Source: an uncultured Phycisphaerales bacterium (lineage in GTDB: Bacteria; Planctomycetota; Phycisphaerae; Tepidisphaerales; Tepidisphaeraceae). From it: 64,000 bases of DNA. The stretch is taken from the NCBI GenBank assembly GCA_963755915.1, contig CAVWLP010000002.1, positions 1,440,001 to 1,504,000 on the forward strand. Reading direction: 5' to 3'. Of the stretch, positions 2,775-18,144 are shown one piece after another. Made by a program: the position numbers and the translations under genes. A model generated the notes under the pieces. That model did no database searches. It worked only from the letters and a program-made list of their open reading frames with translations, and was not told where the DNA came from. Positions within the stretch are counted from its first letter, which is position 1; each line of letters begins with the position of its first letter.

Positions 2775-4296
2775 CAATAGTGTCCGGAACGCGGGCTCAC
2801 CAATGACACAATCTTGCGCTTGCGCGAAGCAGCGTTTTGTGGTTCACTGCCGCCACGTGCACGCGGACCTTTGCCCAGCTTCTGGATTGCCCGCCAAGCC
2901 GGGACGAAAGCCGCGGCCGGCGGTGCGGGGGGAGGATTTGTTCGGCGGCAAGTACGTCGGTATTTTGCAGGATCATCTGGCCCGCCTGCGGGCGGCGCAT
3001 CCCCACCCCAATCGCACGCTTTTTTATGACGATGTGACCCTTGCCTATCTGCTGGCGTTTTTCACGCCGGCGATTCGCAGCCTGCGGACGATGGAGGATT
3101 TCAGCCAGACCGAGCAGATGCAGGAGCAGCTTTCGGTCGATCGCCTGCCGCGTTCCACGCTTTCCGATGCCAACGCCCTGTTCGATCCGACGCTGCTGGA
3201 GCCGATCATCGAGGAGTTGCGGGCGCGGCTGCCGCACCTGCGTCACGGCGATCCGAAGCTGGCGGAGTTGACCGAGCGGGTACGGGTGGTGGATGGGTCG
3301 CTGTTCACCGTTGCCGCCGACGTGGCCTGGGCGCTGCATCAAAGTCGACCCAACGGAAAGCCCATGGACACGATTCGCCTGAATCTTCAATGGGCGGCGG
3401 GCGTGGGGGTTCCCGAGGGAGTGACGATCAGCGGCGCGGGATGCTCCGAGGCGCAGGCGCTGATGCAGTCCCTGGAGCCGGGACAGATTTACGTCATGGA
3501 CCGCGGCTACGTCTGTTTCGAGCTGCTGGAGCGGATCGTACATGCCTGCAGCGATTTTGTGCTCCGGCTCAAGTCAAACAACTATTTCATTCCCATCGAA
3601 AACAATGACTTGACCCCCAAGTCCCTGCCGCTGAGCGATGAAGACCGCGCTGCCGGCATTCTCAGCGACCGGATCGGATACCTGGGCTCAGAAGGGCCAC
3701 GCTTTGCTCCTCCGGCGGGAAAATGGCTTCGGGAAGTGACGATCTTCGACCCGGACAAACCCGACAGGCCCCTGCGGCTGCTGACCAATCTTCTTAACAT
3801 TCCCGCCCATGTCATCGGTCTGCTCTACCGCTGGCGATAGAAGATCGAGCTGTTTTTCCGCTGGCTGAAAGTGCACGCCCACTTCCGCCATCTCACCAGC
3901 CACAGCAAAAACGGCGTCACCACCGGGTTCTACATCGCGGTCATCGGGGTGCTGTTGATCTATCTGCACACGCAGCGTCCGGTGAGCAAATATGCCTACG
4001 CGATGCTGAGCCTGGTCGCCGCGGGAGGGGCCACGTTGCAAGAGATTATTCCCATCCTGCAGCGCGAGAACGGGAATGCGAGCTGCAGCGTCAGCGTGTG
4101 GCACGGAAGAAGGCTGAAAAAATCGTCAAGTAAGTCACCGGGGGTTTTTGTTGTCCGGCCGCCGGTGAACGCCGCGGCATGCGCTGCAGGAGCAGCGCTG
4201 AACCTTCCACGCCGTTGCCCATCGAGGCAACGCAGCCTTTCGAGTGAAAACCCGAAAAATCCCAGCTCTAAGACGCGGAAGTCCCGGACAATATTG
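2775..4296 (+). mobile_element. IS4-family insertion sequence, copy 1
   Basis: Terminal IRs CAATAGTGTCCGGAAC / GTCCCGGACAATATTG (14/16 match); 9-bp target duplication CGCTTTTCG at 2766-2774 and 4297-4305; near-identical copy at 22467-23990. Confidence 0.95.
2887..4133 (+). CDS. IS4-family DDE transposase with in-frame TAG at 3838-3840 (start uncertain; extra 1-nt deletion near 4065 relative to copy 2)
   Basis: VVDGS, VMDRGY and YRWR*KIELFFRWLK (YREK signature). Confidence 0.85.
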
Positions 4297-9683: not shown

Positions 9684-9926
9684 TTAATTCAACCGCGCGG
9701 CACGTTCATCCCGCGTCTTGTTCGCCGCCCGACTGATCTGGTCGGCGGCATTGTTTGCAAGATTCGCCGCCTCATCCGCGGCCCGGTTGGCTGCATTTGC
9801 GCGTTCATCCGCGGCCCGGTTGGCTGCTTTGGTCCGTTCATCCGCGGCCTTGTTGGCGGCGTTGGTCCGTTCGTCCGCTGCCTTGTTGGCCGCATGTTTC
9901 GCGGCCTGATCTTCTGCGGGGTTCAT
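9684..9926 (-). CDS. Small hydrophilic protein built of 11-aa repeats (LEA-like)
   Basis: AANKAADERTN-type repeats (33-bp period); GGTGA upstream of ATG. Confidence 0.6.
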   Translation of the reverse strand: MNPAEDQAAKHAANKAADERTNAANKAADERTKAANRAADERANAANRAADEAANLANNAADQISRAANKTRDERAARLN

Positions 9927-9990: not shown

Positions 9991-10341
9991 CTATCGCGCT
10001 CGCCTGAAAGCCCAAAACATTCGATCCACCGCTTCGCTGTTTTCGCGATTCAGGCGGTCTTCAGGCTGTTGGGAGAATTGCACGTCGCGGCGCCAGTCAT
10101 CGAATTCCCCTCGCCGTCCGTCCGCGCACACCACGCTGTCCAGGTGCCGCGAGCGCGTCTTATCGGTGAATATCACCAATTTCCAGCCCTCAACCAAAAA
10201 CTCAACGGTCTCATCCGTCCAATATTGGTACGGATTCTTGAGCTTCGGAACCGACCGGCCGGTTGCCACGTTACGCAGAAGCCCCAGCGCTTCATCCGAC
10301 GTCACGGTCGTCAATTTCACTTTTTGGTTTGATATCGACAT
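9991..10341 (-). CDS. Hypothetical protein
   Basis: ORF with GAAAGGA upstream of ATG 10341; translationally coupled to upstream gene. Confidence 0.55.
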   Translation of the reverse strand: MSISNQKVKLTTVTSDEALGLLRNVATGRSVPKLKNPYQYWTDETVEFLVEGWKLVIFTDKTRSRHLDSVVCADGRRGEFDDWRRDVQFSQQPEDRLNRENSEAVDRMFWAFRRAR

Positions 10342-10682
10342 CAGCGTCCTTTCCGCGTCCACCAGATGACGATGCCCGCGCCGATCGCCGCGCCGAGGAG
10401 CACCGCGGTTTTGGGATGGTCGCGCACGCTGCGCTCGAAACTCTTCTCCACCGAGCGAGCCTTGGCGCGGGTGCGGTTGAAGGAATGGCGCGCGTATTGC
10501 CCAACGTCTTCCAAACTGTTCCGCACAGCTCCGGCCGCCTGCCCGGCCGCTTCGTGCACCGCGTGAGCCGTGCTTCGAACGCTTCCGCCCACACTTTGGG
10601 CTGCAGATCGGATGCCGTCCGCGACACTGTCCACGACATCTGCCGTTTGGTGCGCGATTGTTTGATCGTCATCTGGTTTCAT
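10341..10682 (-). CDS. ElaB/YqjD/DUF883-like tail-anchored stress protein
   Basis: Ala-rich helix ending VRDHPKTAVLLGAAIGAGIVIWW. Confidence 0.65.
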   Translation of the reverse strand: MKPDDDQTIAHQTADVVDSVADGIRSAAQSVGGSVRSTAHAVHEAAGQAAGAVRNSLEDVGQYARHSFNRTRAKARSVEKSFERSVRDHPKTAVLLGAAIGAGIVIWWTRKGR

Positions 10683-10862
10683 GATTCATTCCAAAAAAAA
10701 GCAAACTGGTTTACCGTGCAGCGACCTGCGACCGCGCCACAGTGTGCCGATGTTCTGGTGTTCGCATATCTCCTCCGGAAGACACGTCGCGGAATACCAA
10801 CAGCAATCCCGACACCAACCCACACCCGGCACAAAGGGCACGTTCGCTAAAAATAAAGGGCG

Positions 10863-11081
10863 TTAGGCGTTTTTCGCACCCGCGCCGAATACGACCATGA
10901 GCAGCCCGACCAGTCCGGCCGCGCCGCCGCCGAAGATGTACCACGCCGTCGCCTGGGTAAATTTCCCGGTGAACGTATTGCTGATCTGGTCCGCCGCCGA
11001 GTGGGACGCGTTCATCCCGACGATCAGCAAGGCGATTCCCGCCACCAGCAGGACGATTCCGAAAACACGTTGCATACTCAT
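10863..11081 (-). CDS. DUF3185 family small membrane protein
   Basis: GIVLLVAGIALLIVG..SHSAADQISNTFTG..TAWYIFGG pattern; GGAGG RBS. Confidence 0.8.
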   Translation of the reverse strand: MSMQRVFGIVLLVAGIALLIVGMNASHSAADQISNTFTGKFTQATAWYIFGGGAAGLVGLLMVVFGAGAKNA

Positions 11082-11128
11082 AACTGCCTCCAATTTCTAA
11101 AAAAGAGTTCCAAATTTCGTGGACGGTC

Positions 11129-11438: not shown

Positions 11439-11642
11439 TCAGTGGGCGACCGATGGCGCCGTGCTGTGCATTCGCTGCCATACTTCCCAGCGGTTGATGT
11501 GAATGCCGGCAGTTGCCTCAAAGCCCAGGCGCACCGTTGTCTTCTTAATCTCAATCACGGTGACTTTGAGCGCCGACTCAATGGGGCCGATGGGATCTCC
11601 CACGACGACCGATTCGCTGTTCCTTCTCGATAGAACCAACAT
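11439..11642 (-). CDS. csrA: Carbon storage regulator CsrA/RsmA-family RNA-binding protein
   Basis: MLVLSRR.SESVVVGD..VTVIEI..VRLGFEA..INRWEV; AAGGAG RBS. Confidence 0.85.
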   Translation of the reverse strand: MLVLSRRNSESVVVGDPIGPIESALKVTVIEIKKTTVRLGFEATAGIHINRWEVWQRMHSTAPSVAH

Positions 11643-11737
11643 GACGATACTCCTTTTCTTCGGCCGATCGCTCGGCTTAACGGAAGATGGCTCGAAGCGT
11701 CAGCAACGTCGCGGTAAGAAGCCCGGCCGGCCGGCCG

Positions 11738-11960
11738 CTACGACGGGCTGTCTTGCGCGGACACAAAATAAACCCGGTGCTGCGCGCCTTGCACGAGCGT
11801 GTCCGAGACAACGCGGCCGTTGATTGTGACCGTGTTGGTCTTCGGATCCACGGTAACCGCTTCATTCGCTCGCAGCGGACCGGAATAATCGATGCGATCG
11901 TTTGTCACGTCATACACCCAGATCCTGCCATACGTCGGCGCGGCTCCTTGATAAATGAAA
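11738..11960 (-). CDS. Hypothetical small beta-rich protein (start unclear)
   Basis: Protein-like open frame between leader copy A and csrA; no clear in-frame ATG after the terminator. Confidence 0.35.
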
Positions 11961-11991
11961 CACTCAGTCCGTTGTTCAAAACGATGCTCTG

Positions 11992-12110
11992 AAAAACAAA
12001 AAAACCGACGCAATCCGAATCCCGGAGTTTCGGGATCCAATTGCGTCGGCTTACTTGTTAACGGGTCTTCCAGCTTTTGGCAGGAATACCCTTCATTGAG
12101 TCATCCGAAG
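11992..12110 (-). ncRNA. Putative cis-regulatory attenuator RNA, copy A
   Basis: UCGGAUGACU..variable hairpin..AGUAAGCCGACGCAAU..AUCCCG/CGGGAU..AUUGCGUCGG-U-tract; homologous to 12742 and 14482 copies. Confidence 0.75.
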
Positions 12111-12225
12111 ATATCGCGCTCCGAAGTGAGGCGACGTTTTTTAGGAATCACTAACAAAATCATCATACGCCTGCAAAATCGCATAGCAAGAAGATTCCCG
12201 TTTATTCGCTATACTATTCTTCTAA

Positions 12226-12603
12226 ATGCAGACTCAAGGCGAAATTGAGAGCGCTATTTCCAGGGGCATGGTGCAGTTCGAGCAGGAATACCTGGGCCGC
12301 GGCCCCAAAGACGTTCGCGTTCACTTGATCGATGAGCTGGTAGTCGTGCGGCTCAAGGGGGTTCTGACCGCCGCCGAGCAGCACCTGGTCAAGACCCTGC
12401 CCGCCGAAAAGGGCCGCGATTTGCTCAAGCAAGTGCGCACCCACCTCATTGAAACCGCCCGGCCGATGATGGAGGCCATGGTGCAGGAAATCACCGGCGT
12501 CAAGGTACTAAGCCTCCATCACGACATCAGCACAGTGACCGGAGAAGAGGTTGTACTCTTCACGCTTGCCGAATCACCTCTGTTCCGCGATAAAAAAAAA
12601 TAG
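12226..12603 (+). CDS. DUF2294 / MpsC-family protein
   Basis: FEQEYLGRGP..V..LKGVLTAAEQHL..GRDLLKQVR..GVKVLSLHHDISTVTGEEVVLFTL. Confidence 0.9.
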   Translation: MQTQGEIESAISRGMVQFEQEYLGRGPKDVRVHLIDELVVVRLKGVLTAAEQHLVKTLPAEKGRDLLKQVRTHLIETARPMMEAMVQEITGVKVLSLHHDISTVTGEEVVLFTLAESPLFRDKKK

Positions 12604-12741
12604 ATTCGTCGCGGATGGATCAGATGCGCGATTCAGAGCGAAATCCAAACATTTGTTCATTGCAATTACCAGGCCAGCGTCCTACGCTGTAGAGCGATGT
12701 AGGAGTAAATGCCCCCTCCATCATGCAGTGAATACAATTCC

Positions 12742-12850
12742 TCGGATGACTAAATAGCTGGCACCCCGCTCTCCCGGGGGGCCGGTTGCAGAGTATGCCG
12801 ACGTGATTGAATCCCGTATCTCGGGATTGGATTACGTCGGTTTTTTTCTT
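12742..12850 (+). ncRNA. Putative cis-regulatory attenuator RNA, copy B
   Basis: TCGGATGACT 12742-51; AGTATGCCGA 12792-801; terminator CCGACGTGAT..ATTACGTCGG plus T-tract. Confidence 0.75.
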
Positions 12851-12887
12851 TGTGTAGTCGGATTCCGAATAGCCGAGAAAGGGCGAC

Positions 12888-13190
12888 ATGCTAAGCACAG
12901 ATGAACTAGCCAACGGCAAAACCTTCGTCCTGAAATTGAAGGACGCAAGCGGAACGTCGTTCCAATGGGTCCAGGTTCTGCGCGGCGCCATCGCCCGGCG
13001 ATGGTACGACATTTACCGGGCCTCCGATTGGGTTGCCTTAAGGCTCGAAGCCGCCGCCGTCTTTCTCAAACCTGTAACCGAGGCCCAGGCCGATCGAAAC
13101 TGCAAGACCGGCCAGTGCATCGTGATCAAAACCGAAGCCGTAAAGGAAAACGAATTGGTGCGCCCACCTGAAAATCTGAAAACGCAATAA
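12888..13190 (+). CDS. Hypothetical protein
   Basis: 100-aa ORF with GAAAGGG upstream, directly after leader copy B. Confidence 0.55.
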   Translation: MLSTDELANGKTFVLKLKDASGTSFQWVQVLRGAIARRWYDIYRASDWVALRLEAAAVFLKPVTEAQADRNCKTGQCIVIKTEAVKENELVRPPENLKTQ

Positions 13191-13234
13191 GTTTCGCAGA
13201 TCTTCCGGTTGTTCAGCCACCAGAAAGTAAAAGG

Positions 13235-13648
13235 ATGGACCATTCCACTGATCGATCGATGGCAGAGCAAATCGCCGAGGCGGCGACCGCCTTCCAGCAG
13301 GAACGGACCGGCCACCCCCCCAAATCCGTCAGCGTCGTCCTCAGTGGAGACACCCTCGTTGTCACGCTGCACGGCGCACTTTCCCCCGCTGAGCAGGCAC
13401 TGGCACTCAGCTCCGAAGGCGCGGCCAAGGTGCGCGAGTTTCACCAACAGTTGTTTCTGAATGCTTCCGACACCCTCCGCCAGGAGATCACCCGCATTAC
13501 CGGAATGGATGTGCGCGAGGCCACCGCAGAAGTGGAGCCCACGTCCGGATCCGTCGTCCACGTCTTCACCAGCGGCACGATGGTGCAGGTGTTTCAGCTC
13601 GCCGGCAATGTGCCGACTGGAAGTTTCAACACCACAACCAAGACATGA
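13235..13648 (+). CDS. DUF2294 / MpsC-family protein (divergent paralog)
   Basis: FQQERTGHPPKSVSVVL..LVVTLHGALSPAEQAL..VREFHQQLF..ITGMDV. Confidence 0.8.
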   Translation: MDHSTDRSMAEQIAEAATAFQQERTGHPPKSVSVVLSGDTLVVTLHGALSPAEQALALSSEGAAKVREFHQQLFLNASDTLRQEITRITGMDVREATAEVEPTSGSVVHVFTSGTMVQVFQLAGNVPTGSFNTTTKT

Positions 13649-13682: not shown

Positions 13683-13877
13683 ATGATTCGATTCCTTGGC
13701 AGTCTCGTTGTGCTCTTCGCGATCGTCGCCGGCATCGGATATTACCGCGGCTGGTTCCATTCGGAATCAATAGGTACTCCTGGCCACGATGCCGTCACCG
13801 TCACAGTGGACAAAGACAAGATCAGCCAGGACAAGGCCAGCGCGGAGCAACAGGTTCAGGATCTGACGCACAAATAA
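13683..13877 (+). CDS. Small membrane-anchored hypothetical protein
   Basis: GGAGA RBS; TM helix then GYYRGWF..TVDKDKI. Confidence 0.65.
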   Translation: MIRFLGSLVVLFAIVAGIGYYRGWFHSESIGTPGHDAVTVTVDKDKISQDKASAEQQVQDLTHK

Positions 13878-14217: not shown

Positions 14218-14442
14218 TCAGACACGCCCCGTTTGAACCATTCCCGCCGGCACACTGCCATTCGACAATTCGTCGACCTTCGCCTTCGCATCCGATATGG
14301 AGTCTGCGAACCCGTAACTTCGATCCATGCCGGATTCCCTTCGCGTGATATACCACCGGGAATCCGCGGCATTCGGCTGGTGAAGCTGGGTCAAAACAAA
14401 ACCTCGATATGATGTCCGCTTGATAATGTCTTCGATTTCCAT
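14218..14442 (-). CDS. Hypothetical protein
   Basis: GAAAGG RBS; first gene after leader copy C. Confidence 0.5.
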   Translation of the reverse strand: MEIEDIIKRTSYRGFVLTQLHQPNAADSRWYITRRESGMDRSYGFADSISDAKAKVDELSNGSVPAGMVQTGRV

Positions 14443-15481: not shown

Positions 15482-16372
15482 TCACGCCGTCTGGCCGGCG
15501 GATACCCCCACATCAGAAGACAACGGCGGCTCTGTCACGGTGTCTTCCGGGGGGGAGCACCCTTCATCGCCGGCGGTACTCCGCCGTCCTTTTGGATTTG
15601 TCTTTTCCGGTGTCCCGGATTGGCCTGCCGTGAGCGAAGTCGAATGGCCCCCATGCCGAAGGCGGTAGCTCTTGCCGGTGATGTTGATGATCGTGGCGTG
15701 CTGCAGGAACCGATCCAGAATGGCCGTGGCCGCCGGCACGTCGCCGATCAGCTTGGCCCAGTCCTCCAGTGGACGGTTGCTGGTCATCATCGTCGAGCGG
15801 TTCTCGTGCCGGCGCATGACGATCTCCAGCAGGCATTCGCCGCTGCGCCGCGGAAGCTGCTTCATTCCCATGTCGTCGATGATAAGCAGATCAGGCTTGA
15901 GATACCGGGCCAGCGTCTTGTCCTGGGCTCCCAGATCCTCGTCGCCTAAAAAGTCGCGGGCCAGGTCGAAGATGGATCGGTACAGGACCACCAAGCCGCT
16001 CTTGATCGCCTGGTGTCCGATGGCCTGGGCCAAAAACGATTTGCCCACGCCGGGCGGACCCAGCAAGAGCACGTCACGTTTGTCACGAATGAACTGGCCG
16101 GCGGCCAGATCGTGAATCTGTTTGCGTTTGATGGAGGTGTTGAAGGAGAAGTCGAACTCGTCGAGGTTTTTGGTGTCGCGGAACATCGCCGCCTTGACGC
16201 GCCGGCCGATCTGCCGGCTGGATCGGACGTTCAGTTCATCCTGAAGGATCAGTTCCAAAAACTCACTGTGGTCGAGCCGATTGCCGGCCGCCTCGCTCAG
16301 GCGAACTTCAAGGCTGCTCGCCAGACCTGAAAGCCGAAGTTGCTTGAGCGTCTGCATCAACGAAGGTCTCAT
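15482..16372 (-). CDS. istB: IS21 helper ATPase IstB
   Basis: LDEFDFSFN, GPPGVGKS, LLIIDDMG and AILDRFL motifs. Confidence 0.95.
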   Translation of the reverse strand: MRPSLMQTLKQLRLSGLASSLEVRLSEAAGNRLDHSEFLELILQDELNVRSSRQIGRRVKAAMFRDTKNLDEFDFSFNTSIKRKQIHDLAAGQFIRDKRDVLLLGPPGVGKSFLAQAIGHQAIKSGLVVLYRSIFDLARDFLGDEDLGAQDKTLARYLKPDLLIIDDMGMKQLPRRSGECLLEIVMRRHENRSTMMTSNRPLEDWAKLIGDVPAATAILDRFLQHATIINITGKSYRLRHGGHSTSLTAGQSGTPEKTNPKGRRSTAGDEGCSPPEDTVTEPPLSSDVGVSAGQTA

Positions 16373-18144
16373 GGGGTGGACTCCCTTCGGCTCTGCTCAG
16401 GGCAGGCCTGTAAAGGTTGTGCGGCAGGCAAAGCCTCCGCTTGGGTGATTGCGTCGCGTACGAACTGTCCGTAATCGGCCAGTCCGCGGATGATTGGATG
16501 TTCCTGAACAAACTCGAAGTGTTGTTGAACCGGTGCGCCGTTTTGGTGTTCGATGAGCTGCCGCAGGGAGGCGCAGGTGATACGCGCCATGCCCCAGAGC
16601 AATCTCGCAGGCTCGTTCCACGGCCGGTCGCGGCTGCTGATTGGCCAGCGACAGCAGCCCCATCAACACGCGCACGCCTTCGATGCCGCGATGCTGAAGC
16701 ATTGACTGCGCCCACTGCGTGGCGTGCGGCCCGATGCATTCGATCCGCTGGAGAAGCCAGGTCGTTCCACGCTCGATGCCGCTGATCTTCTCCGGCAGGA
16801 TATGGGCGTCTTGCGTCGAGAACCTGCCCGGCGGACGCTGCGCGTGCAGAGCGATCGCACGCATCTTCTGATCGAACAGCCGGACCGTGCGCCGTCCCAC
16901 CGCGCCCAGACCCGCTGGCCCAAAAACTCCGGCGGGACCGAATAGTACGCCCCCTTGATCTCCACGTGCCCGTCGCGGTGAACACTGCGCAACGCCTCGG
17001 TGAAAAGATCGAATCGCACCGGCGGCAGAGCCAACAGTGCCGGCTTCTCTACCTGCTCGAAGACTTCCTTCACCTGCCGCCGCGTCGTGCCGTGGATGCG
17101 CGTGTCGGCCACGCTCTTCTCCCACGTCAGCAGATGCGCGTTCTGATCCGAGAGCGAGGCGAATTGCCGGCCTTTGAGAGCATTGCTCTTCACATAGCCG
17201 ATGCCCCGCTCGATCTTCCCCTTGTGCCGCGGCGTGTACGGCTTGGTGGGCAGAATGGCGATTCCATAATGTTCGGCGAACGACCGGACCTTGGGACACA
17301 ACTCCGCCTCGAACCAGTCCGCCCGCGTCACCGCCGCGCGAAGATTGTCGATCACCAGCGCCGACGGCATCCCGCCGAAGTGCGTAAAGGCATTTTCCAG
17401 ACAACGCAGAAAATCATCGGTCGTCTGCCGCTCCACCGCCTCGGCGTACCCCTTGCGGCTGTGGCTCAGCACAATGCGGAAGACCCAGGTTGCTTTGCGT
17501 TTGCCGTCAGGACCGACCAGGGCGCACCCCGGCCGAAGTCCACCTGCGCCTCGGCTCCCGGCTCGCATTCCATCCGGCGAAAGGGCGCCGGCGCGGCAGC
17601 CGAGAGCTTCTTGATGAACCGGCGCACGCTGTAATAGCTGCCGGCATAGCCGTGATCGCTGGAGATGTCTTGATAAATCCGCTGGGCCGTCAGCCCGGCT
17701 TCCAACTTCTGAACAATGACCTCACGCCAGGGCGATGCCGTACTGACCGACCCGATGGTGCGCCGGATAACCCGGTGGCGCGCTTTCCGAGCCGCCTGCG
17801 GCGAGCACCGTCGAGCCGCCTGCGGCGAGCACCGTCGAGCCGCCTGCGGCGAGCACCGTCGAGCCGCCTGCGGCGAGCACCGTCGAGCCGCCTGCGGCGA
17901 GCACCGTCGAGCCGCCTGCGGCGAGCACCGTCGAGCCGCCTGCGGCGAGCACCGTCGAGCCGAGGGGCGCGCTGGCCGGTTTTGAATCCGATCCGGCGCC
18001 GCAGGATCGCCGCCCGACAACCGGATGTGGCGTCCAACGGTCTCCCGGTGAACGCCGAGTTGGCGGGCGATGTTCCGATTGGACCAGCCGCTGCGCAAGT
18101 GCCAAAATTGCTTGTACTTCCGCCATCTTGAGTTGATTGGCCAT
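16369..18144 (-). CDS. istA: IS21 transposase IstA (several apparent frameshifts)
   Basis: HTH, EAQVDFG, IDNLRAAV, HKGKIERGIGY and RIHGTT motifs across frames; ATGA overlap with istB. Confidence 0.9.
17788..17955. repeat. Perfect tandem repeat, 7 x 24 bp, inside istA
   Basis: Unit CGAGCCGCCTGCGGCGAGCACCGT with no spacers. Confidence 0.95.

Follow-up and report, generated by a model that had tools for sequence, protein, structure and literature searches.

In the hut operon of Bacillus subtilis, the gene of a small regulator, HutP, lies beside a terminator/antiterminator leader that controls the genes after it, and expression is turned on by antitermination. An arrangement of similar logic was found in a stretch of 64,000 nt (hereafter, the window) of one contig (CAVWLP010000002.1) in the 81% complete assembly GCA_963755915.1 of an uncultured Phycisphaerales bacterium of the family Tepidisphaeraceae. 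There, three copies of a leader RNA (leaders A, B, and C) are interspersed with two genes of the DUF2294 (MpsC) family, D1 and D2, and with a gene for a CsrA-like protein (Table 1). The likeness to HutP/hut consists in a candidate regulator gene that adjoins the leader, a regulator that is presumably signal-bound, and a proposed ON control by antitermination. The differences are that the leader forms a rod with a 3x3 loop and has no UAG repeats, that each leader appears to have its own promoter, that up to 13-14 leaders occur per genome, and that the module includes a leader-controlled paralogue, D2, and the csrA-like gene. Sequence, profile, and fold searches detected no relation of D1 to HutP among the matches listed.

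The antiterminator proteins BglG, SacY, LicT, and GlcT, which act on the ribonucleic antiterminator (RAT), resemble the mechanism proposed here in that a protein stabilizes an imperfect antiterminator hairpin, which contains internal loops and shares sequence with an intrinsic terminator. However, D1 has neither CAT nor PRD domains (PF10057 was its sole Pfam match), there is no phosphotransferase system context, and the cargo looks like that of a stress regulon. TRAP/anti-TRAP and PyrR share with the module a choice between terminator and antiterminator that is set by a protein, and also a second, separately controlled protein, as which D2 might act on D1; unlike the proposed D1, TRAP and PyrR promote termination, their families are unrelated to D1, and the interaction of D1 with D2 is putative. 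The ON riboswitches for guanidine (guanidine-I) and Na+/Li+ are similar in their conserved aptamer, covarying stems, and a P1 3' strand common to the terminator, whereas the leader described here matched no Rfam family, its cargo suggests no ligand, and it has an obligate neighboring protein gene. The gene order of fliW and csrA resembles that of D2 and the csrA-like gene, since in both cases csrA shares an operon with a gene for a small protein (29 of the 80 loci analyzed below); however, D2 belongs to DUF2294 and not to the FliW family, its operon lies behind an attenuator, and the leader also occurs in genomes without the paralogue. Finally, MpsC of the mpsABC (DabAB) system of Staphylococcus aureus belongs to the same Pfam family, PF10057, as D1 and D2, but the latter are tied to an RNA leader and not to a transporter operon. 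The original prediction (see below) had noted that mpsAB/dabAB genes are missing from the window; DabA (PF10070) was not found in the 81% complete genome, in a search that did not extend to an MpsA/NuoL-like gene. The closest logic is that of HutP/hut, LicT/RAT, PyrR, and TRAP/anti-TRAP attenuation and of the ON riboswitches, and by sequence, fold, or Rfam model the module is a member of none of them.

An earlier reading of the window, made from its letters (the original prediction), had described this combination as a control module not reported before, and the abstracts surveyed agree with it. Those on DUF2294, MpsC, and YbcI contained nothing functional, the MpsC matches listed being unrelated acronyms, and those on planctomycetes, riboswitches, terminators, and CsrA contained nothing on the module. 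The main text of two papers on the discovery of non-coding RNA (PMC8632094, PMC11109978) did not include the string "Planctomycet"; their supplements might list a related motif.

Leader RNA and its association with DUF2294 genes

The leaders of the window are ~120 nt each, and all three contain TCGGATGACT and UCGGAUGACU; in addition, TCGGATGACTNAAT has three exact matches in the window. Ten copies found in this genome as motifs were aligned to obtain the model R1, which was thus trained on the genome's own copies and gave a genome total of 11 leaders (E 6e-36 to 1e-16). The 11 genome copies and the covariation of their stems exclude a chance origin of these repeats. A cmscan of the window against Rfam 15 returned no gathering-level match, and relaxed thresholds returned only noise between positions 10800 and 15200 (E of at least 0.22).

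In stem P1 of the leader, UCGG-AUG-ACU is paired with AGU-AAG-CCGA around a symmetric 3x3 non-Watson-Crick loop with the contacts A.G, U-A or C.A, and G.A. P1 is followed by the conserved junctions AAAU.A / GUUAACG, by P2, a hairpin with an internal loop, and, 3' of P2, by a long terminator hairpin with a U-run. The 5' arm of the terminator (GCCGACG) overlaps the 3' strand of P1, so that P1 and the terminator are mutually exclusive in alternative folds; the predicted fold was the terminator state for full leaders (z -5.3 to -7.2) and P1-P2 for the first 68-69 nt alone. We take the P1 loop (GAUGA / GAGUAAG) to resemble loop-E / sarcin-ricin-type motifs, which often serve as protein platforms.

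In an alignment of 119 leader copies from across the phylum, 93.6% of the cells pair and compensatory changes were present in 23 of the 32 pairs. On each of five measures, none of 500 shuffles reached the observed values, and slid controls were only 31-47% paired. The covariation was located in P2 and in the terminator. An alternative structure, in which a 5' hairpin exposes the GGA, was considered; it is possible in 74.7% of the cells, showed no covariation (91 of 500 shuffles were equally good), and was rejected as a conserved structure for want of that support. A pattern scan for terminators between 11900 and 12900 gave no sites, although leaders A and B fold into long terminator hairpins with U-runs; presumably, the simple stem rule of the scan fails on mismatched long stems. 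Sigma-70-like hexamers stand 55-75 nt upstream of the leader copies, and each leader thus seems to have its own promoter. Apart from these promoter-like hexamers, the upstream regions of the 11 leaders revealed no common motif or operator, which suggests that the element common to all of them is the transcript.

The gene D1 is not preceded by a leader on its strand. A gap of ~110 nt separates its start from the 5' end of leader A, which is divergent, and its stop is ~130 nt before leader B. D2 is located 3' of leader B, after an open reading frame (ORF) of 100 aa (ORF100), and the csrA-like gene is 3' of leader A, after a small ORF. The original prediction had placed the three genes in the same way, the two intervening ORFs being an addition, and its family assignments were borne out by Pfam, with both D1 and D2 above the gathering cut-off of PF10057 (23 bits). 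The whole genome contains five DUF2294 genes, every one within 400 bp of a leader: three of the D1 type (126-130 bits) and two of the D2 type (60-80 bits). The identity between D2 and D1 is 25%.

This placement was surveyed in 40 relatives together with the genome studied here, two DUF2294 fragments of 31-33 bits being left out. A leader was present within 350 bp of 29 of the 31 D1 genes of the family; divergent leaders accounted for 24 cases (mostly at 116-122 nt) and same-strand leaders downstream of D1 for 21 (mostly at ~150 nt). Within 2.5 kb, none of the 31 D1 genes was preceded by a same-strand leader. A same-strand upstream leader preceded 21 of the 22 D2 genes of the relatives, the exception being at a contig end. 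Across Planctomycetota, D1 proteins are 74-95% identical. In multi-copy genomes most leaders are distant from any D1, as are six of the 11 in this genome.

The original prediction had meant the two candidate factors to be told apart by their co-occurrence with the leader, and the result was clearly in favor of DUF2294. Among the 141 genomes of the family (this one included; mostly metagenome-assembled genomes, MAGs, with kin not independent of each other), the leader was found in 46, DUF2294 in 42, both in 41, and neither in 94; searches over more than 40 genomes were run with stricter filters. The five leader-only genomes (G012, G195, G251, G259, and G023) have 1-2 copies each, and the only genome with DUF2294 alone (G202) has a gene of the D2 type. 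Genes of the D1 class (at least 100 bits) were detected in 39 genomes, none of which lacks the leader. Each of the genera g5, g6, and g11 includes species with both elements and species with neither, and these within-genus contrasts depend less on common ancestry. Matches to the CsrA-like paralogue (at least 86 bits with its own profile) were obtained in 17 family genomes, 16 of them among the 46 with a leader; the unpublished genome G014 was counted as having leader and DUF2294 without the paralogue and enters into no other result. DUF2294, and D1 in particular, tracks the leader RNA, and the CsrA paralogue does not. In a sample of the phylum (150 genomes), the leader was present in five genomes, DUF2294 in 11, and both in four.

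When one genome of each species was scanned with the D1 alignment, 574 confirmed relatives were obtained, of which the best 80 loci (74-86% identical) were analyzed. They derive from Tepidisphaeraceae, Pirellulales, Isosphaeraceae, Gemmataceae, Thermoguttaceae, and other groups. An R1 leader was located within 500 bp of D1 in 72 of them, in divergent orientation in 69 and downstream in 17. According to a phmmer scan of all frames in flanks of 2.5 kb, D2 was present in 49 loci and a csrA-like gene in 34. The commonest arrangement was csrA-like <- D2 <- leader beside a divergent D1 ->, and csrA-like <- D2 <- leader next to D1 was found in 29 of the 80 loci. Whole-genome leader counts in five genomes with the module were 13, 1, 4, 1, and 1, and in the three large single-leader genomes the sole leader is situated between D1 and D2. 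These genomes indicate that the minimal system consists of D1, leader, and D2, with or without the csrA-like gene; the extra leaders of the genome studied here are an expansion of this minimal module. The self-contained module of leader, DUF2294 pair, and CsrA put forward in the original prediction is thus strongly supported, both by the conservation of gene order and by co-occurrence.

A few of the 80 loci bear the names of other phyla, probably because of mis-binning. Four D1 loci, 77-80% identical to that of the window, are found in MAGs assigned to Bacillota, Methanomassiliicoccaceae, Alcaligenaceae, and Deltaproteobacteria (L074, L080, L104, and L121). Three of these four contain the planctomycete leader, and binning contamination is a likelier explanation of the labels than transfer.

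A diverged form of the leader was found where R1 gave no match. In G032 and G034, which represent other families of the class, D1 is present, and a hairpin and terminator of the leader architecture lie 70-160 nt after it. This variant-2 leader has its own TTGACA-N17-TATAAT-like promoter and the strands GGCAGAU...GAUAGGCC, the terminator beginning within the 3' strand. It adjoins D1 in five of the seven phylum-sample genomes that contain DUF2294 without an R1 match. Seven variant-2 leaders can be aligned, and their P2 and terminator covary; they have no Rfam match and no conserved GGA in the 5' strand. Judged by translation, the variant-2 cargo includes phosphoenolpyruvate (PEP)-carboxykinase-like ORFs, an SbtA-like permease, and a D2-like gene; Pfam, run on the large ORFs of G032 and G034 only, identified DUF4914 in G034 and no family for the G032 ORF. 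The type of RNA changes together with the D1 lineage.

Just after the variant-2 terminator, before the cargo gene, a second conserved stretch (GCCUGCC..GGCUGAAGUG.G.UGA...CAAAUCAC) was observed, which may be structured (Table 1).

Candidate mechanism and competing explanations

We tentatively favor D1 as the trans factor that works the leader, at a confidence that falls somewhat short of even, because of its regulator-like position, its extreme conservation, and the change of RNA type with the D1 lineage. As is typical of protein-dependent antitermination, the gene of a putative regulator (D1) stands beside the leader on which it would act and is inherited jointly with that leader, and this genomic context suggests that D1 may bind the leader RNA. 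Each leader would be transcribed from its own promoter and would first fold as the P1-P2 rod. If nothing held P1 in place, the downstream arm of the terminator would capture the 3' strand of P1 (GCCGACG) and transcription would stop. The default state would thus be OFF, since the 4-bp base of P1 and its non-canonical loop presumably cannot hold against a terminator of at least 10 bp. Active D1, presumably in a signal-bound form, would recognize the invariant internal loop of P1 and stabilize the antiterminator, and RNA polymerase would read into the cargo. The core output, which would probably also exert feedback, would be D2 and the CsrA-like protein; the further cargo in this genome consists of stress and energy genes, namely those for glucoamylases, phosphoketolases, a P-type ATPase, a Dyp peroxidase, SPFH and YflT-like proteins, and small membrane proteins. 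We infer the ON direction of the control, the existence and nature of a signal, and the part that D2 and the CsrA-like protein would play in feedback.

Possible, though more doubtful, is a wider reading in which DUF2294/MpsC would be a new family of signal-sensing, RNA-binding antiterminators. D1 would read the loop-E-like loop and switch on a phylum-wide stress/energy regulon, D2 would be an anti-regulator, the CsrA paralogue would be the post-transcriptional output, and the diverged pair of RNA and protein would gate carbon-handling genes (PEP carboxykinase-like, SbtA-like, DUF4914) elsewhere. If this were true, MpsC of mpsABC would become a regulator instead of a transporter subunit. DUF2294/MpsC is a widespread family without a demonstrated function, for which a concrete antiterminator hypothesis and a defined RNA partner can now be offered. 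The leader itself is an uncatalogued RNA family in a group of bacteria, the Planctomycetes, of whose gene regulation little is known, and it appears to organize a stress/energy regulon (glycogen breakdown, phosphoketolase, H+-type ATPase, and small membrane stress proteins).

The D1 protein itself was compared with known structures. Its predicted fold consists of a helix, two strands, two helices, and two strands, with a predicted local distance difference test score (pLDDT) of 94.6. The best Foldseek rows were TRAPP Bet3/TPC6, YslB, and H-NOX, all of them weak (E 0.012-0.1; template modeling score, TM, 0.37-0.44). VIA-align gave Z values of at most 6.8 to generic two-layer alpha/beta folds; TRAPP subunits, MJ1460, PoxR, and DmpR scored Z 5.0-6.0, no higher than unrelated rows, and V4R ~5. 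Such weak and generic matches neither assign D1 to a fold family nor exclude one. The ESM Atlas provided no usable D1 match outside PF10057, NCBIfam had no model matching D1, D2, or the small ORFs, and a sequence comparison with solved structures returned nothing, whether D1 alone or its profile was the query. No known antiterminator chain was among the D1 matches listed, and its absence there does not exclude homology. The structure prediction suggested at the outset delivered a confident model, the fold of which gave no decisive hint of RNA binding. D1 retains the basic residues R25, K28, R64, K68, and R71, which D2 does not have; neutral or acidic residues occupy the positions in D2 that correspond to the D1 motifs GRGPK, KGRDLLKQVR, and HHD.

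Several observations weigh against D1 as the factor that reads the leader. The strands of P1, the proposed target, are almost invariant, and P1 is therefore neither backed nor contradicted by covariation; moreover, U14 is replaced by C in 40 of the 119 copies with an unchanged partner. A D1 match is missing in seven of the 46 leader-bearing family genomes (five without DUF2294 and two with D2 only; these MAGs are 81-95% complete), and no leader was seen beside DUF2294 in two of the seven phylum-sample genomes with DUF2294 only. The modeled fold of D1 hints, if anything, at a small-molecule sensor rather than at a known RNA binder, and by sequence count the protein is not basic overall (~17 K/R against 18 D/E). 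In addition, DUF2294 also occurs in Bacillus subtilis, where its gene presumably lies beside mpsAB.

A rival explanation is that the leader is a true riboswitch, in which a small molecule or ion would bind the P1 loop and junction and stabilize the antiterminator, and in which D1 and D2 would sense, bind, or handle the signal or act downstream without contacting the RNA. We regard this as a serious rival, though as less probable than D1 as the factor. In its architecture the leader matches a transcriptional ON switch: the structured aptamer has a conserved core and covarying variable stems, and the expression platform overlaps P1 and is exclusive with the aptamer. Many copies per genome precede diverse genes, as is the case with second-messenger riboswitches; the fold of D1 leans weakly to the ligand-sensing domains V4R, H-NOX, and Bet3; and the seven family genomes that have the leader but no D1 point the same way. 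However, an unregulated divergent gene at a fixed distance (69/80 loci) is the signature of a regulator and unlike riboswitch cargo. The sole leader of the three large single-leader genomes controls only D2, with or without the csrA-like gene, and thus provides no metabolic clue to a ligand, and the type of RNA changes with the D1 lineage. The leader-only genomes of the family, moreover, have 1-2 copies, and three copies from G012 and G023 look degenerate, with changes at otherwise invariant positions. Should D1 prove not to bind the RNA, the leader would become a strong candidate for an orphan riboswitch, and the module itself would hold a clue to the signal.

The proposal that CsrA, as the paralogue or in its canonical form, binds the GGA of the 5' strand CGGAUGA, blocks P1, and thereby favors termination, with DUF2294 as a FliW-like antagonist of CsrA, appears quite improbable. 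The GGA is indeed near-invariant in the 5' strand of P1 (G10 and G11 in 119 of the 119 copies, A12 in 110), and we take it to resemble the CsrA motif obtained by systematic evolution of ligands by exponential enrichment (SELEX). The paralogue is a divergent one, as its scores are below the NCBIfam equivalog cut-offs (TIGR00202, 48.9 against 70.1 bits; NF002469, 45.9 against 73 bits) and two better-scoring CsrA genes are present elsewhere in the genome (90.9 and 82.6 bits on PF02599). It keeps the N-terminal and R51/E53 positions: M1, L2, L4, R6, R51, and E53 do not vary among 26 orthologues. As the essential RNA-contact residues of CsrA we take the MLxLxR of the N-terminus and the Arg in the xRxE of the C-terminus. 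The adjacency of D2 and the csrA-like gene in one operon (29/80 loci) would suit such a pair, although adjacency by itself does not make D2 an antagonist; in several loci the two frames abut or overlap, as judged from stop-to-stop frames and ORF starts. A complex prediction for two CsrA-like chains with D2, for which controls were not run, had a score of 0.00 and weighs neither for nor against binding.

On the other side, the paralogue is restricted to 16 of the 46 leader-bearing family genomes and was not found at the level of at least 86 bits in the leader-rich G018 (11 copies) and G288 (10 copies), whereas canonical CsrA (~57 bits) is present in 138 of the 141 genomes regardless of the leader. 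The 5' strand of the variant-2 leaders has no conserved GGA, and the hairpin that would display the GGA was without covariation. Taken together, the paralogue counts and the GGA-less variant leaders show the csrA-like gene to be a frequent cargo and not a required factor, as which CsrA had originally been considered. A dedicated CsrA paralogue within the module may still offer a new wiring of CsrA-type regulators. In G006, a leader-downstream csrA-like paralogue (C2:672008-672124) was broken by an in-frame TAG.

It is very improbable that D1 is a DNA-binding factor acting on the divergent promoter region common to D1 and the leader, with the RNA as an independent attenuator: the divergent regulator-target geometry with its short conserved spacing would suit such a factor, but six of the 11 leaders here are far from any D1, the leader upstream regions have no common motif beyond promoter-like hexamers, the variant-2 leader follows D1 and has a promoter of its own, and Pfam, NCBIfam, fold, and structure searches detected no DNA-binding family or fold in D1.

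Window features and leader cargo

Table 1. Coordinates of the leaders, genes, and related elements, with the evidence for each (window positions unless a locus is named).
Feature	Position	Strand	Evidence and remarks
CsrA-like paralogue	11439-11642	-	PF02599, E 1.1e-13, 51.3 bits (cut-off 27), profile positions 1-51 of 53; cargo of leader A
Small ORF between leader A and csrA-like gene	~11738-11920	-	ORF list; start uncertain
Leader copy A	12115 to 11989	-	R1, 128.7 bits; P1-P2 hairpin and overlapping intrinsic terminator
Sigma-70-like promoter of leader A, TTGCTA-16-TATGAT	12189 to 12162	-	Consensus scan only
D1, DUF2294 type 1	12226-12603	+	PF10057, E 4.6e-38, 130.1 bits, profile positions 1-110 of 111
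Leader copy B	12735-12856	+	R1, 104.6 bits
ORF100 (100 aa), first cargo of leader B	12888-13190	+	Conserved ORF
D2, DUF2294 type 2, leader-controlled paralogue	13235-13648	+	PF10057, E 1.5e-22, 80.2 bits, profile positions 2-108
Putative membrane protein (64 aa), end of leader B unit	13683-13877	+	ORF only, no Pfam match
74-aa ORF, cargo of leader C	14218-14442	-	ORF list; no known family
Leader copy C	14600 to 14475	-	R1, 131.5 bits
Second conserved stretch after variant-2 terminators	L129 ~2525-2580; L131 ~2000-2060; L134 ~2565-2620; L035 ~3600-3660(-)		No Rfam match

The 11 leaders of the genome precede different genes. Downstream of leader A are the small ORF, the csrA-like gene, and then DUF3185; downstream of leader B, ORF100, D2, and the small membrane ORF; and downstream of leader C, the 74-aa ORF. 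Leader D is followed by DUF5670 and DUF2950, leader E by a GH15 glucoamylase, leader F by a phosphoketolase and a P-type ATPase, and leader G by small proteins, DUF3309, a 310-aa membrane ORF, and a Dyp peroxidase. The genes after leader H encode a D2 protein, a YflT-like protein, and a glycogen-phosphorylase-like ORF; those after leader I, an SPFH protein, a small membrane ORF, and a glucoamylase; those after leader J, a small ORF, a phosphoketolase, and a class-I aldolase-like ORF; and leader K precedes an acyl-ACP desaturase. The 310-aa ORF of leader G, the glycogen-phosphorylase-like ORF of H, the glucoamylase of I, and the phosphoketolase and aldolase-like ORF of J were named from their translations. 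Read from this list of genes, the leaders seem to control a regulon for stress and energy limitation. The sequence GGCAGACGAUUGAA was present 5' of both phosphoketolase leaders, F and J (C2:2143620-2143650 and C3:67003-67033); it resembles the 5' strand GGCAGAUUGAC of the variant-2 leader, which may be a coincidence or a relic.

Among the small ORFs of the window, the one between leader A and the csrA-like gene had no Pfam or NCBIfam match, and ORF100 belonged to no known family. An orthologue of ORF100 was located 3' of the same leader in locus L054, and L084 has a small ORF after D2 that is similar to the 64-aa ORF of the leader B unit. Two genes on the same strand past the csrA-like gene may belong to the leader A unit: the DUF3185 membrane protein at 10863-11093 (-) (E 1.5e-20) and a 113-aa protein at 10341-10682 (-) with weak, sub-threshold Pfam matches.

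Metatranscriptome contigs of relatives (90-99% alike; soil, litter, and rhizosphere) cover the csrA-like gene with the small ORF (matches at 11729-11943) as well as ORF100 with D2, and cover D1 much less; being assembled, these contigs give no information on starts, ends, strand, or level, may include carried-over DNA, and bear neither on termination nor on habitat. The region 12093-12246, which spans the gap between D1 and leader A and extends into the 5' portion of this leader, had no contig in four RNA-library runs while its flanks were covered; contigs of relatives cannot show absence.

Farther from the module, an 80-aa low-complexity ORF with AANKAADERT-type repeats was noted at 9684-9926 (-). 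On the other side, the region 15482-17568 (-) contains what looks, by translation, like an IS21-type pair, composed of a 296-aa IstB-like ATPase (15482-16372) and a transposase-like ORF (16663-17568).

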